This document shows, piece by piece, positions 2,121 through 6,264 of a stretch of 6,529 nt of DNA. Positions within the stretch are counted from its first letter, which is position 1, and the number at the start of each line of letters is the position of its first letter. Made by a program: the position numbers and the translations under genes. The notes beneath the pieces were generated by a model. The model saw only the letters and a list, made by a program, of their open reading frames with translations. It ran no database searches and was not told where the DNA came from. Source of the DNA: a virus; the IMG/VR virus record IMGVR_UViG_3300045988_008314, positions 1 through 6,529 of that record, one strand, 5' to 3'.

Positions 2121-3314
2121 ATGGCTTTTAAAGATTTTGCGAGCGGATTATTTGGCGGTATTGGTTCTGTGATTTCTGGTGCTATTGGTGCTAAGACCAC
2201 GGCCGATACTAATAAGACTAATCTCAAGATTAATCAGATGAATAATGATTTCAACGCTCGTGAAGCCCAAAAAGCCCGTGATTTTCAGTTGAATATGTGG
2301 AATAGGGAAAATGAGTATAACAAGGCTTCTTCTCAGCGTAAAAGGCTGGAAGAAGCAGGTTATAATCCTTATATGAGTGATGCACAGGCTGGTTCTGCTT
2401 CTGGTATGTCCGGCACTTCTGCTGCTTCTGCTGCTGGTGCTACTCCTCAAATTCCATATACTCCTGATTTTCAGTCTGTTGGTGTTAATTTGGCTTCTGC
2501 GTTGAAAATGATGTCCGAAAAGAAACAAACTGATATTGAGAATCTCAATATGTCTGATTTGTTGCGTTCTCAGATTTGGCAGAATATTGGTGCTACTGAT
2601 TGGCGTAACGCTTCTCCTGAGGCTCGTGCGTATAATCTTTCTCAAGGTCGTAAGGCTGCCGAACTTGGTATGGCTTCTCTTGAGGAGAATCTTTCCAATC
2701 AACGTTGGTCTAATAATTTGCTTGTTGCTAACATTGCGAATTCTCTTCTTGATGCTGAGGCGAAAACTGTTATGAATAAGTATCTCGATGAAAATCAGCG
2801 TGCCGAATTGAATATTAAGGCGGCTAATTATGAGTATCTTATCATGTCTGGCCAAATGAAGCGTCAAGAAGTGAATAATCTTATTGCTGATGAACTTTTG
2901 ACTTATGCGAAAGCGAATGGCCAGAAGATCTCTAATCGTATTGCTGAAGAAACCGCAGATAAATTGATTAAGGCTACTAATAATACCAATATGTATTTTG
3001 GTGGTTATTATGGTTCTCGTGGTTCTTATTCTCGGCAAGATGCATTTCACGATTCTTCTATTCTTCGTTCTCGTGCTGGTTCTGCTGCTGAAGATTATCA
3101 GCAATCTCGATTTGATACGAAGTTACAGCCTTGGCGTGAGGCTGTTAATTCTGCTAATATGATTTTTAATGGTATTGGTTCTGGTTTGGATTCTTATACC
3201 AATTATCAGAATGGTCGTTATAATCGAGGTAGACCTTACTTTATGGATTACGATGAATACTATGATGATAATAACGGAAAGAGTTCCGTTCGTTCTAAAC
3301 GACATCGTAGATAA
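2121..3314 (+). CDS. VP2: Minor capsid / DNA pilot protein VP2 (phiX H analogue), 397 aa
   Basis: The N-terminus is Gly-rich and hydrophobic (FGGIGSVISGAIGA). It is followed by NAREAQKARDFQLNMWNRENEYNKASSQRKRLEEAGYNPYMS, which matches the conserved microvirus VP2 segment (FQErM-N-a-qR---dl-aAGlNP). There is a Ser/Ala low-complexity linker and the gene sits downstream of the capsid gene. Confidence 0.85.
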   Translation: MAFKDFASGLFGGIGSVISGAIGAKTTADTNKTNLKINQMNNDFNAREAQKARDFQLNMWNRENEYNKASSQRKRLEEAGYNPYMSDAQAGSASGMSGTSAASAAGATPQIPYTPDFQSVGVNLASALKMMSEKKQTDIENLNMSDLLRSQIWQNIGATDWRNASPEARAYNLSQGRKAAELGMASLEENLSNQRWSNNLLVANIANSLLDAEAKTVMNKYLDENQRAELNIKAANYEYLIMSGQMKRQEVNNLIADELLTYAKANGQKISNRIAEETADKLIKATNNTNMYFGGYYGSRGSYSRQDAFHDSSILRSRAGSAAEDYQQSRFDTKLQPWREAVNSANMIFNGIGSGLDSYTNYQNGRYNRGRPYFMDYDEYYDDNNGKSSVRSKRHRR

Positions 3315-3347: not shown

Positions 3348-3385
3348 ATGCACTGGCTCGTGATGAGTCGGTGCATTTTATTTAT
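3348..3385 (+). terminator. Intrinsic terminator of the Rep-to-VP2 transcription unit
   Basis: The hairpin atgcactggctc / gtgat / gagtcggtgcat (3348-3376) has a 12-bp stem including 2 G:U pairs and a 5-nt loop. It is followed by tttatttat (3377-3385) and starts 34 nt after the VP2 stop. Confidence 0.7.
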
Positions 3386-3437: not shown

Positions 3438-3489
3438 CCACCTCTCTCGTCCGAGATTGGCAAAAGTGACACCAATAAAAATGCAAAAC

Positions 3490-3503
3490 ATGTTATATAA
3501 CAT
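3490..3503. promoter_or_regulatory. Perfect 14-bp palindrome ATGTTATATAACAT, a candidate operator or protein-binding site just upstream of the -33 element
   Basis: It is perfectly self-complementary and is flanked by the 7-bp inverted repeat acaccaa (3469-3475) / ttggtgt (3514-3520). It ends 9 nt before the TTTG at 3513. Confidence 0.4.
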
Positions 3504-3512
3504 ATAATTTAA

Positions 3513-3544
3513 TTTGGTGTATTCCCGTTTTCCCCTTATCTTTG
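3513..3544 (+). promoter_or_regulatory. Bacteroidetes-type promoter for the small-ORF cassette: -33 TTTG (3513-3516), 20-nt spacer, -7 TAtcTTTG (3537-3544)
   Basis: It matches the Bacteroides consensus (TTTG, 19-21 nt, TAnnTTTG) exactly. The ATG of the 59-aa ORF lies 27 nt downstream of the -7 box. Confidence 0.6.
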
Positions 3545-3570: not shown

Positions 3571-3750
3571 ATGAAACAGAAAGTTAATGATTGGTTATTG
3601 CGGTTGGTTCGCATTGATTCTTGTGGAAATAGAGAAGTCTCTCATGTTTGTCTTTATGACATGTCCAGAACTCAAGTTATGAAACTTGCTGAGGATTATG
3701 GTAAAGATTTTGCTGCTGTTCGTGTGTTTAAACTTGAAGTTATACTTTGA
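3571..3750 (+). CDS. Hypothetical 59-aa protein (MKQKVNDWLLRLVRIDSCGNREVSHVCLYDMSRTQVMKLAEDYGKDFAAVRVFKLEVIL), absent from the supplied ORF track
   Basis: I translated it by hand: ATG at 3571, TGA at 3748-3750. Third positions are T-rich like the bona fide genes. A promoter match lies upstream and a GC hairpin downstream. The composition is non-repetitive and globular-looking. Confidence 0.6.
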   Translation: MKQKVNDWLLRLVRIDSCGNREVSHVCLYDMSRTQVMKLAEDYGKDFAAVRVFKLEVIL

Positions 3751-3834: not shown

Positions 3835-4026
3835 ATGAAACTTTTAATGACTGTACAACCGAAAACTGGTGAAAAGCCTTCTGACCCAATGTTGATTGAT
3901 ACAAACGAAAACGATTTGTGTTGCCTCGCTGATGACTTTCTGCGTGCTGGCGATAAGGTTCTGATTTTTCAGCCCGTAACTGAATATAAGGTTACCCCTT
4001 GCGGAAACTGTGACAAAAAAGAATAG
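3835..4026 (+). CDS. Hypothetical 63-aa acidic protein with a Cys pair at each end (CC, then C-G-N-C)
   Basis: The ORF is in the track, on the same strand as all other genes, with an AT-rich leader. A poly-pyrimidine tract follows the stop. There is no family motif and the codon bias is weaker than in the structural genes. Confidence 0.5.
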   Translation: MKLLMTVQPKTGEKPSDPMLIDTNENDLCCLADDFLRAGDKVLIFQPVTEYKVTPCGNCDKKE

Positions 4027-4064
4027 TTTTTCTTTTTTTTCTTCCGACACCGCTTATTATTGAC

Positions 4065-4196
4065 AAATTGTGAAGACTGCACCAAGCGTTATTGTATTGA
4101 AAATTGTTAATATCGTGTGTGTGCGAAGTTTACGTAGCACGCGCGCGAAATTAATAATTTTTGATACAATGTTGATTGGTGCTTTCTTCACAATTT
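4065..4196 (+). other. 132-nt extended hairpin (imperfect inverted repeat); candidate complementary-strand origin or structured element of the encapsidated + strand or of the rep leader
   Basis: Positions i and j pair with i+j=8261 from 4065/4196 to 4124/4137, with no bulges. Of 60 stacked positions, 47 are Watson-Crick, 8 are G:T and 5 are mismatches (4077, 4078, 4086, 4089, 4112). The apex is gaagtttacgta. The inner stem is built from alternating (GT)n on one arm against (GC)n on the other. Confidence 0.85.
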
Positions 4197-4207
4197 ACCT
4201 ACCTTTG
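4176..4207 (+). promoter_or_regulatory. Candidate Bacteroidetes-type promoter for rep and the late block: -7 TAccTTTG (4200-4207) with a partial -33 (TTG at 4176-4178)
   Basis: The -7 box matches TAnnTTTG exactly. The -33 element has only TTG at a 21-nt spacing. It would give a leader of roughly 110 nt before the ATG at 4325. Confidence 0.4.
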
Positions 4208-4324
4208 CGGTTTCGTAAGATTAAAAGTAAAAGTATTCTTTACCTGCGCGGAGCGCAAATTGTTCGCAACTCTGTTGCGTGCTTTATGGATTCTATGTGA
4301 TTAACATCCAAAATAAGAAGAAAT

Positions 4325-6046
4325 ATGTCTGACAAGGTTCGTAATTTTTTCAATCGTTGCGAGCATCCTCGTATAATAAAAAATAAGTATACAGGTGAAC
4401 CTGTTTATGTTAAGTGTGGTGTTTGTCCTCATTGCTTGATTTCGCGTTCTGATGCGAAAAGAAACTTGTGTGATTATGAAAAGTGGAATCGTAAGTATTG
4501 TTACTTTGTAACATTGACTTATAATTCGCAGTATGTCCCGAAAATGGCGCTTGTACCTATTGATGATTATGAATTTGATTATCCGATAGGTAATAATTGG
4601 CCAGCTGTCCGTTCTCAGTTGCTTACGCGTATATTAATTGACCCTCGAGTAAAAAAACAGGATAATGGACAGGATATTAATATGTTTACCTGTAAGGTAA
4701 ATTTCCCTTACATAGATGAGCATTTGAAATCTATATTTGATTCCTGTGTTACTGCTGCTGAGTTTCGAAAGAATTACAAACCTGAGTATTTTTCTTCCGC
4801 TCGTCCTTATATTCTTCGTACTATCCCTCGTGTGTCTAAGTTGCAGAAATTTAAAGACGTTCAGCGTGAAGAACTTATTTGGATTTCTCCTGAAAAGGTT
4901 GAGATGCTTAAGAGAAAATCTAAATGTGAAGGCAATGATAATGCTTTCCCTCAATTTAAAGGACTTCTTAAGTATGTGAATTATCGTGATTATCAACTTT
5001 TTGCGAAACGTTTTCGCAAATATTTATTTACAAAAATTGGTTCATATGAAAAAATATCTTCATACGTTGTATCGGAGTACTCTCCTAAGACATTCCGCCC
5101 GCATTTCCATATCTTATTTTTCTTTGACTCGGACGAAGTCGCCGAAAACATTCGGCAAGCTGTATTTCAGAGTTGGAAACTCGGTCGTGTCGATACGCAG
5201 CTTGCAAGGGACTCTGCCGGTTCATACGTATCGGGCTATCTTAATAGCCTTGTGTCTCTCCCCAGCATTTTTACGGACGTCTCGTTTACAAAAAATAAGT
5301 CGCGGTTTAGCAAATTATTTGGATATGAAAGCTTTCGACAAACAGTTAAAACACCTGAACAAGCAGTCGAACGCTTATCTGAGCGAATACGCTTTGTCCG
5401 TAATGGCAAGTCTTGCGAACTCACTCCCCCCATTTCGTATATCTCTCGATTATTGCCAAGATTCGTACCATACAGCAATAATTTTTCTGTCGAAACTCGA
5501 ACAGTTATTACAGCAATTCGAGGCGTATTACAACTCTTTAGACGAAACGAACCCTTTAAAAAAGAAACTCCTACAAATGTATCCGAGTTTATACACACCT
5601 ATGTCGTGACGTTGTATGAAAAGTATGGTTATTGTTTTGATTCTCTTCCTGAGTGTCTTCGTGTCTATCTTGCTTATACGCGCTCTGCCAAGGAAATTCA
5701 TTACTTCACTGATAGACTCAAGAATAAGCTTTGCCGTCCCCTATATATATATCGTGTGTGGGAGTCTCTTGGTTTATCTGATGATTATCTCATTTCTTTG
5801 TCTGATGAATACATGTCTAAGTGTCGATCTATGTCCTTAGAAAAACAGTTAAGTATTCAGCAGGAAATGTTCGAGCGTGAAGGTTATTCGGATGAACTTC
5901 TATCTTTATTTTATATTAATAAACCTCAAAAGAAAGTTAATAATCCTTATTTTCAGGAATGGAAGGATAAGAATTACCATGAAGTACATTATATTCGCGT
6001 AAAACATAAGAAATTAAATGATGAAAATAATGTATTTTTGGAATAA
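4325..6046 (+). CDS. VP4: Rolling-circle replication initiator VP4 (phiX A homologue, HUH superfamily), 573 aa
   Basis: Motif I is FVTLTY (aa 61-66, nt 4505-4522). The HUH motif is RPHFHILFFF (H260-F-H262, nt 5102-5110). The catalytic Tyr pair is SYVSGYLNS (Y301 and Y305, nt 5225-5239). The N-terminal Cys/His cluster is C-E-H, then C-G-V-C-P-H-C, as in other microvirus Reps. Confidence 0.93.
   Translation: MSDKVRNFFNRCEHPRIIKNKYTGEPVYVKCGVCPHCLISRSDAKRNLCDYEKWNRKYCYFVTLTYNSQYVPKMALVPIDDYEFDYPIGNNWPAVRSQLLTRILIDPRVKKQDNGQDINMFTCKVNFPYIDEHLKSIFDSCVTAAEFRKNYKPEYFSSARPYILRTIPRVSKLQKFKDVQREELIWISPEKVEMLKRKSKCEGNDNAFPQFKGLLKYVNYRDYQLFAKRFRKYLFTKIGSYEKISSYVVSEYSPKTFRPHFHILFFFDSDEVAENIRQAVFQSWKLGRVDTQLARDSAGSYVSGYLNSLVSLPSIFTDVSFTKNKSRFSKLFGYESFRQTVKTPEQAVERLSERIRFVRNGKSCELTPPISYISRLLPRFVPYSNNFSVETRTVITAIRGVLQLFRRNEPFKKETPTNVSEFIHTYVVTLYEKYGYCFDSLPECLRVYLAYTRSAKEIHYFTDRLKNKLCRPLYIYRVWESLGLSDDYLISLSDEYMSKCRSMSLEKQLSIQQEMFEREGYSDELLSLFYINKPQKKVNNPYFQEWKDKNYHEVHYIRVKHKKLNDENNVFLE
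5046..5609 (+). CDS. Candidate overprinted ORF in the +1 frame of VP4 (187 aa from ATG 5046; alternative start ATG 5325 gives 94 aa)
   Basis: The track ORF 4986..5609 begins at GTG, and the first ATG is at 5046. Its span coincides with a local loss of the genome-wide T3 codon bias in VP4. The C-terminal 94 aa (MKAFDKQLKHLNKQSNAYLSEYALSVMASLANS...SKLEQLLQQFEAYYNSLDETNPLKKKLLQMY) look protein-like rather than like the hydrophobic off-frame products seen elsewhere. Confidence 0.3.
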   Translation: MKKYLHTLYRSTLLRHSARISISYFSLTRTKSPKTFGKLYFRVGNSVVSIRSLQGTLPVHTYRAILIALCLSPAFLRTSRLQKISRGLANYLDMKAFDKQLKHLNKQSNAYLSEYALSVMASLANSLPPFRISLDYCQDSYHTAIIFLSKLEQLLQQFEAYYNSLDETNPLKKKLLQMYPSLYTPMS

Positions 6047-6060
6047 TTATCTTTGTATTT

Positions 6061-6264
6061 ATGAAAATTACATCTCAGCAATGGATTGAAGTTGTTAAAT
6101 TGATTTCTACTTTCATTATTGGCCTTATTACGGCTTTGTGTGTTCAGTCTTGTACTGCGTCTATGTCTGTTTTTTGGAAAAATAGTAATTCTAATCAAGA
6201 GAGTCAGCAAACTACGAAACAGTCTGTTGATTCTACTCGTATTAATGTTCAACCAAATTTTTAG
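6061..6264 (+). CDS. Hypothetical 67-aa membrane-anchored or lipoprotein-like protein; candidate lysis or exclusion factor
   Basis: It starts 14 nt after the VP4 stop and its stop lies 3 nt before the VP1 ATG. Codons are T3-rich. There is one hydrophobic helix (KLISTFIIGLITALCV), followed by Q-S-C (a possible lipobox-like VQSC) and a polar N/Q/S-rich tail. Confidence 0.7.
   Translation: MKITSQQWIEVVKLISTFIIGLITALCVQSCTASMSVFWKNSNSNQESQQTTKQSVDSTRINVQPNF

Follow-up and report, generated by a model that had tools for sequence, protein, structure and literature searches.

The stretch of DNA analysed here, 6,529 nucleotides (nt) of IMG/VR virus record IMGVR_UViG_3300045988_008314 (hereafter the window), is a complete gut microvirus genome with all of its genes on the + strand. 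Upstream of its rep gene lies a folded element at 4040-4220, which we read, at even confidence, as the complementary-strand (single-strand) origin of the packaged + strand. The element is non-coding, is conserved and covarying as a structure throughout its clade, and folds preferentially on one strand. The packaged strand of Microviridae has mRNA sense, and the + strand of the window is therefore the virion strand. Phages with single-stranded DNA (ssDNA) are expected to have a complementary-strand signal.

The core of the element is a long gapless hairpin on the + strand at 4065-4196, composed of a 5' arm (4065-4124), an apical region (4125-4136) and a 3' arm (4137-4196). It had been proposed in a first-pass annotation of the sequence, and its existence was borne out: a repeat search returned gapless inverted-repeat arms of 65 nt at 4065-4129 and 4132-4196, 77% complementary and with 2 nt between them, and typing of the pairs in the register i+j=8261 gave counts identical to those annotated. 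Over the 60 positions of 4065-4124 there are 47 Watson-Crick pairs, 8 G:T pairs and 5 mismatches (4077, 4078, 4086, 4089 and 4112); all 66 positions together hold 50 Watson-Crick pairs, 8 G:T pairs, 8 mismatches and no A:C pair. The apex (4114-4147, + strand), GC-rich and alternating between purines and pyrimidines, pairs cgtgtgtgtgc (4114-4124) with gcacgcgcgcg (4137-4147), as described previously, around a 12-nt loop. Three T:G wobbles are found in it, and their positions move among relatives, with CG/UG/UA and GC/AU exchanges in alignment columns 53-63 with 76-86. What required correction was the extent of the fold. An outer stem on the + strand, in which 4040-4053 pairs with 4207-4220, enlarges the folded domain to about 181 nt (4040-4220). 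The 3' strand of this stem overlaps the predicted rep transcription start near 4214. Between outer stem and hairpin lies an internal loop on the + strand, formed by 4054-4064 (ttattattgac) on the 5' side and by 4197-4206, which holds most of a -7 promoter box, on the 3' side.

The hairpin is the most stable fold of the genome. In a scan of 327 overlapping 180-nt segments, the hairpin segment reached -44.7 kcal/mol against -14.6 +/- 4.3 elsewhere, a departure of about 7 standard deviations. Folding of both strands of 4040-4220 as DNA and as RNA, a check that the first-pass annotation had proposed, gave unequal energies, with the + strand lower in both cases. With DNA parameters the values were -45.6 kcal/mol on the + strand (z = -10.4; reached by 0 of 200 shuffles) and -38.4 on the - strand (z = -7.4), and with RNA parameters they were -85.1 and -64.4, respectively. 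In the scan, the difference between the strands amounts to -7 to -10 kcal/mol at the hairpin, against -0.7 +/- 2.1 genome-wide.

Conservation was examined in about 100 related loci gathered by Rep-anchored searches of IMG/VR, JGI/ENA metagenomes and a protein collection, in which the hairpin was looked for with an nhmmer profile. The clade set comprises 61 distinct members with at least 420 nt upstream of rep, and Rep homologues of this clade, which is abundant in the human gut, were 2,441 in number and were sampled from human gut, rodents and lemurs. Scanning IMG/VR with the 14-mer AATGTTGATTGGTG proved unspecific and, among the matches listed, returned known members only. The hairpin is present in 61 of 61 members, no more than 400 nt from rep, and nhmmer found the element in every locus having the region; the spacer between hairpin and rep ATG ranges from 21 to 177 nt. 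In relatives with Rep about 29-40% identical, no homologous hairpin was found by folding, nhmmer or covariance model. A structure conserved above its sequence and specific to one clade fits a structural signal read by the host rather than a sequence read by Rep.

Covariation supports the pairing in detail. The structure-blind MAFFT alignment of 48 unique hairpin variants (alignment A2) gave 40 consensus pairs in RNAalifold, with 97.5% of cells paired and double-sided compensatory changes in 20 of the pairs. Column shuffles yielded 7.4 +/- 1.6 covarying pairs (0 of 500 reached 20), and sliding the register by 1-3 columns left 3-8. For instance, the stem GTGA...TCAC has become ACGT...ACGT in one relative (L218) and CGTAT...ATACG in two others (L190 and L011), GCACCAA...TTGGTGC reads GCGCCAA...TTGGCGC among relatives, and both arms of L006 carry matched single-base deletions. 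The stem is largely rewritten in the closest GenBank genomes, bajarodmic viruses 849 and 585 from rodent faeces, which share about 74% identity with the window across 13-40% of the genome, have the same gene order and encode a Rep that is 54% identical. In a second alignment of 43 sequences covering the extended domain, 25 of 66 pairs are compensated, and in the outer stem 5 of 12 pairs change from C-G to U-A on both sides, with zero one-sided changes. The idea that relatives carry a conserved and covarying hairpin at this locus, on which the earlier claim of function depended, is therefore upheld (61/61 members; 20/40 consensus pairs compensated). The hairpin lies in non-coding DNA between an open reading frame (ORF) at 3835-4026 and rep (4325-6046). 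The ORF at 4070-4300, which overlaps it, was rejected as a coding sequence, in agreement with the first-pass annotation: close relatives interrupt it with stops, frameshifts and 1-nt indels, Pfam gave no match, and the longest ORFs overlapping it in relatives span 18-88 amino acids with differing ends.

Smaller structures were observed around the same site. The spacer between hairpin and rep ATG (4197-4324 and its equivalents) is modular, with length classes near 30, 65, 108 and 175 nt and with blocks bearing small GC hairpins (GCGCggaGCGC, GCAACtctGTTGC) that come and go between genomes. In a distant clade (L042-L047, L220-L226), a short hairpin, AACCGGATTAATTGTAATCTCCGGTT, precedes rep by about 110 nt and shows a compensatory change of its own (aaTcgg...ccgAtt versus aaCcgg...ccgGtt), so that small hairpins ahead of rep are a recurrent feature of gut microviruses. 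The strongest folds of Dulem viruses 263 and 255 (L230, 4001-4240; L232, 3521-3720) likewise occupy the non-coding gap before rep, where they form GC-rich hairpin clusters without strand asymmetry.

The preference for the + strand is as consistent as the fold itself. All 48 unique variants fold better on the + strand, with a mean difference of about -8.5 kcal/mol (DNA parameters) when two reverse-oriented duplicates are left out and of -7.7 over the 50 rows that include them. The variants hold 3-10 G:T pairs on the + strand and practically none on the - strand, and across the alignment G:T stands against A:C at 337 versus 7 cells and 26 versus 3 column pairs. A covariance model built from A2 scored the + strand far higher in every member (for instance, 156.6 versus 92.2, 98.5 versus 59.2 and 85.6 versus 37.0 bits). 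A neutral transition spectrum was derived from 38 rep genes of the same genomes, at their four-fold degenerate sites; under it, 46% of single transitions in the stem are expected to yield G:T rather than A:C. Among main-group polymorphisms, however, 9 of 10 are G:T (P ~0.006 under the neutral spectrum), and over all sequences 26 of 29 are (P ~1e-6, for events that are not all independent). Mutation bias, for example C-to-T deamination of the packaged strand, was therefore rejected as the source of the G:T excess, and selection for + strand folding, as the first-pass annotation had argued, accounts for the pattern. Furthermore, several wobbles stay wobbles in 35-45 of the 48 sequences, which suggests that the strand asymmetry itself is maintained. 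The same asymmetry argues against the earlier suggestion that the apex is prone to Z-DNA or cruciform formation, because the - strand arm would carry A:C mismatches; the alternation of purines and pyrimidines in the apex is what transitions alone would preserve.

Taken together, the position of the element as the most stable and a strongly strand-asymmetric fold of the genome, its retention in every one of the 61 members despite a spacer of 21-177 nt, and covariation in both the hairpin (20/40 pairs) and the extended domain (25/66 pairs) argue for a complementary-strand origin. Single-strand origins in other rolling-circle replicons lie in non-coding DNA beside rep, and the single-strand origin (sso) elements of rolling-circle plasmids, like the minus origins of M13, G4 and phiX174, are stable strand-specific folds that retain structure over sequence. 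By analogy, the element most likely works like these characterised single-strand initiation signals. We infer its functional steps, priming included, as follows. Host single-strand-binding protein would coat the injected genome, the very stable hairpin would persist as a duplex island, and this island would mark where the host priming machinery begins the (-) strand, giving the replicative form. The G:T wobbles would stabilise the + strand fold and weaken the mirror hairpin on the - strand, and the weaker - strand hairpin would also disfavour cruciform extrusion and palindrome instability in the duplex form.

Comparison with known systems places the element near several families. With ssoA-type single-strand origins it shares an imperfect palindrome of considerable length, located in non-coding DNA beside rep or the origin, strand specificity, and structure over sequence; the sso of rolling-circle plasmids works in one orientation, as it must fold on the displaced or packaged strand. 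It differs in lacking sequence homology, in a presumed Bacteroidota rather than a Firmicutes host, and in its single register-perfect 66-bp stem with bubble and outer stem. The ssoA CS-6 motif (TAGCGT/TAGCGA) is absent, the apex reading gcgaagtttacgtagcacgc and the window having GTAGCAC; the comparison with ssoA was made on this motif. Within Microviridae, the PriA (n') hairpin of phiX174, of about 55 nt, and the three short hairpins that make up the G4 complementary-strand origin both lie in the F-G intergenic region. These are likewise intergenic + strand hairpins, whereas the present element, a single hairpin of 132 nt, precedes rep, belongs to a phage that presumably infects another host phylum and has no evident sequence similarity to them. 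Size and location set it apart from the PriA (n') site, and three adjacent hairpins of the G4 type were not found, the fold being one long hairpin with an outer stem. The phiX174 precedent of an intergenic + strand hairpin that starts (-) strand synthesis has been cited for the reekeekeeviruses, in which a 64-nt hairpin with compensatory substitutions between OG91 and Rep was tentatively tied to (-) strand initiation, a role that could not be certified (PMC9865509). This hairpin is the nearest precedent, but it belongs to another clade, is half as long and has a conserved loop, and no strand-asymmetry analysis or promoter embedding was reported for it.

The 3' flank of the hairpin also carries promoter-like sequence. 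The primary sigma factor of Bacteroidota, sigma-ABfr, uses TAnnTTTG at -7 and TTTG near -33 (PMC7366714), and the boxes of the window were scored against this consensus, for a presumed Bacteroidota host. The box TACCTTTG (4200-4207, + strand) fits TAnnTTTG and is likely, judged by its sequence, to be the rep promoter in duplex form; in the main group and the bajarodmic viruses (L001/L002) it is retained as TACCTTTG, TATCTTTG or TACTTTTG. On the + strand, 4 of 5 TAnnTTTG sites stand just upstream of gene starts (3537, 4200, 6033 and 6048), and their total is not above chance. Ahead of the -7 box, the 3' arm holds the near-invariant TTGATTGG (4172-4179, + strand). All 48 variants agree at six of its positions and at least 90% of them at a seventh, and a single variant departs from the leading T. 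The 5' partner of this motif differs by subgroup (GCGT or TTC), forming a partly open internal loop. The motif may be a -33-like TTG (4176-4178), which lies about 21 nt ahead of the -7 box, or else a different site of protein recognition; its 8 conserved nt exceed what a TTTG -33 element needs. As previously annotated, part of the 3' arm coincides with what is likely to be the -33 region of a rep promoter of Bacteroides type (TTGATTGG before TACCTTTG), and fold and promoter use may, as was suggested there, be mutually exclusive. In the ssDNA fold, the TTG is paired and the -7 box is unpaired, in the internal loop rather than in duplex. Placing the G of the box at -7 predicts a rep mRNA start near 4214. 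The covarying outer stem could therefore not form within rep mRNA and would need a molecule spanning 4040-4220, either the + ssDNA or a read-through RNA from an upstream promoter.

The hexamer GATTGG, one copy of which sits in TTGATTGG of the hairpin, is enriched in the window, with 9 sites observed versus 3.2 +/- 1.8 expected, a number that none of 200 shuffles attained. The + strand carries eight of these sites (96, 1155, 1832, 2598, 3455, 3589, 4174 and 6484) and the - strand one (2695), and the copy at 3455 opens a conserved block at 3455-3520.

These boxes invite a more specific version of the complementary-strand origin, to which we assign a low probability. The F-plasmid Frpo is an ssDNA stem-loop that presents promoter boxes to RNA polymerase for primer synthesis (PMC9849209). 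By analogy, the same boxes of the present element might serve two templates, first for a primer on ssDNA and then for rep mRNA. The fold would show the -33-like TTG as duplex and the -7 box TACCTTTG as a pre-opened bubble closed by the outer stem. Host RNA polymerase would start opposite about 4045-4047 and, with the T-rich 5' flank (4047 downward) as template, make a purine-rich primer. This primer would extend toward lower coordinates, as (-) strand synthesis does. The conserved G:T wobbles would let the + strand alone form the priming structure, and after duplex formation the hairpin would be absorbed and the same boxes would transcribe rep. Host RNA polymerase likewise makes the primer at the M13/f1 minus origin and at ssoA. 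The geometry of the present fold agrees with that of the M13/f1 minus origin and Frpo, the 3' arm being the non-template and the 5' flank the template strand, and here a -33-like TTG lies in a duplex stem. These systems differ from the proposed arrangement in that the boxes here are of sigma-ABfr type and would double as an ordinary rep promoter, the -7 box is in an internal loop and not in a reconstituted duplex, and one subgroup has no bubble.

Several observations weigh against the origin and its polymerase-primed version. The -33-like TTG lies about 3 nt farther from the -7 box than the consensus position. In the subgroup of L003, L017 and L208, the outer stem and the bubble are absent, and priming by RNA polymerase therefore cannot hold clade-wide in the form described. 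In gut microviruses farther removed, the hairpins of the equivalent region are all short or symmetric, so the hairpin is not a general solution. Sequence likeness to characterised single-strand initiation signals was not found; with neither sequence nor architecture in common, the element stands outside those families. In addition, a + sense read-through RNA from the promoter at 3537 would share the fold and the G:U logic, which makes DNA and RNA roles inseparable by sequence.

Such a role at the RNA level is the strongest rival to the complementary-strand origin, though we consider it unlikely. In read-through transcripts from an upstream small-ORF promoter, the element would act as a 3'-end stabiliser, an RNase III site or an insulator against read-through into rep. 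The + strand is also the mRNA sense, the RNA fold is very stable and asymmetric (-85.1 versus -64.4), the wobble content, at about 14%, is in the usual range for RNA helices, and a promoter-like site at 3513-3544 could yield the transcript. However, neither stem is followed by a U-tract, although the phage has a canonical terminator at 3348-3376; no Rfam family scores above threshold; and the fold would lie outside rep mRNA if the promoter is at 4200-4207. The 66-bp helix is also far longer than the phage RNase III sites known to us, which are much shorter. The Rfam search returned sub-threshold matches only, to MIR2670 (31 bits versus a gathering threshold of 117) and MIR7996 (29.3 versus 119), plant miRNA precursors that match as long hairpins generically do. 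An intrinsic terminator was likewise rejected: the hairpin is followed by ACCTACC, without a T/U run, and the terminator scan omits it but lists 3348-3376. The latter is a canonical terminator-like hairpin of 13 pairs followed by TTTATTTATA, just past the pilot-protein gene, and in stability it ranks second among the folds of the genome.

Control of the rep promoter in duplex DNA is improbable as the function of the element. A cruciform, or a dimeric protein bound at CACCAA...TTGGTG, would hide the -33 region and thereby tune Rep levels, a model that draws on the invariant TTGATTGG on the 3' arm beside the -7 box, on the fact that both strands beat shuffles (z = -7.4 even on the - strand) and on the alternating purines and pyrimidines of the apex. 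Selection, however, acts on + strand pairing only, and the - strand arm would carry 8 A:C mismatches. The half-sites lie about 90 nt apart, covariation along the whole stem would be needless for a protein operator, and transitions alone preserve the purine-pyrimidine alternation.

It is very improbable that the hairpin is the (+) strand origin, at which Rep would nick or terminate at a displayed site, for instance in the internal loop at GTTGA/TTGATTGG. The element adjoins rep, TTGATTGG is near-invariant and partly unpaired, and TTG^AT, as we take it, loosely recalls the phiX174 nick context. Against this, the window has no phiX ori CAACTTGATATTAATAAC, even when as many as 3 mismatches are allowed, conservation is lacking in the apical loop, the element is absent in relatives with Rep about 29% identical, and the block at 3455-3520 is a better candidate for a site read by Rep, being near-invariant and sharing its core, GATTGGCRAAAGT, with a distant clade. 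A sequence read by Rep should behave like that block, and a structure read by the host like the hairpin.

The non-coding block 3455-3520 (GATTGGCAAAAGTGACACCAATAAAAATGCAAAACATGTTATATAACATATAATTTAATTTGGTG) is nearly invariant in 57 unique relatives, conserved above the hairpin, and includes a small palindrome that reads ATATGTT-GTAT-AACATAT in most of them. In the clade with Rep about 29% identical, the core of the block, GATTGGCRAAAGT, is found again on the + strand, some 95 nt ahead of rep. From its sequence, the block is a candidate (+) origin or protein-binding site. A small inverted repeat, 3469-3482 with 3507-3520, reuses CACCAA...TTGGTG, and CACCAA occurs on the + strand only there and in the big hairpin. 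It was tried and rejected as a parallel structured element: since it shows no covariation in relatives, it is probably not a structure. The 3' half of the repeat provides a canonical TTTG (3513-3516), followed after 20 nt by TATCTTTG (3537-3544), and the two are likely to form the promoter for the ORF at 3571.

The last alternative, a CTXphi-like attachment site in which two inverted dif-like half-sites pair into a XerC/XerD substrate for integration at host dif, is extremely improbable. Bacteroidales microvirus proviruses are arranged attL-Rep-...-attR at dif-like sites, some with an extra inverted dif-like sequence "reminiscent of CTXphi" (Krupovic & Forterre, PMC3091885), an order that puts the provirus attachment site in the same intergenic slot upstream of rep. 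The forked hairpin of CTXphi attP(+) is likewise a packaged-strand fold of about 150 nt in an ssDNA phage, where related proviruses attach, but here neither dif-like half-sites nor integrated copies were found. A position weight matrix built from 10 Bacteroidetes dif sites (Kono et al. 2011 supplement) scored at best -10 in the hairpin and 4.8 across the window, versus 25-38 for true sites and shuffle maxima averaging 5.5. In the roughly 100 loci searched (genomes, metagenomes, protein database), no integrated copy and no bacterial flanks were seen: the genome scan gave one 3.5-kb Chitinophaga contig, the 61 metagenome loci were all at most 8.2 kb, and the three longer contigs among the best 120 Rep homologues (L020, L022 and L025) were concatemers or a chimera. 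With both the dif matrix and the integrated-copy searches empty, a Xer/dif site is largely refuted. As for the three contigs, L020 (12.9 kb) and L025 (8.9 kb) are head-to-tail concatemers of one microvirus, and L022 (12.4 kb) is a chimera of two microviruses with Reps of 546 and 573 amino acids; they are assembly products or recombinants, not prophages. A mobile palindromic element was also rejected, as blastn matches occurred only in two bajarodmic genomes, at the same locus, and none in plasmids.

The remainder of the genome comprises, all on the + strand, the major capsid gene (3-1667; Pfam Phage_F), a scaffolding-like ORF (1669-2118), the pilot protein gene (2121-3314), small ORFs at 3571-3750 and 3835-4026, rep (Pfam REP_ORF2-G2P) and a small ORF after it (6061-6264). 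Two database entries deserve comment. A 3,476-bp contig in the draft genome of the soil bacterium Chitinophaga silvisoli (NZ_QTJV01000043.1; L019) includes the hairpin together with the rep of this microvirus (87% identical); the contig is probably a contaminant rather than a sign of the host. In bajarodmic virus 585 (PQ006787.1; L002), the annotated Rep coding sequence (4251-6131) begins inside the hairpin (4140-4264), about 200 nt upstream of where likeness to other Reps begins (4452), and its start is probably over-extended.

Alpavirinae-like microviruses are among the commonest human-gut phages; to our knowledge none has been cultured, and we know of no defined replication signals for them. 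In the literature searched, likewise, neither this element nor any complementary-strand signal of Alpavirinae-like phages was found described, in line with the first-pass annotation. If true, priming by RNA polymerase at the hairpin would be the first such case in a microvirus and the first ssDNA promoter for sigma-ABfr. The element is well delimited and can be targeted in synthetic-genome rescue and, with Bacteroidales proteins, in priming assays in vitro, and it could aid the construction of ssDNA vectors for Bacteroidales. More broadly, its wobble pattern shows how an ssDNA genome keeps a long hairpin on one strand and yet avoids a true palindrome in the duplex.

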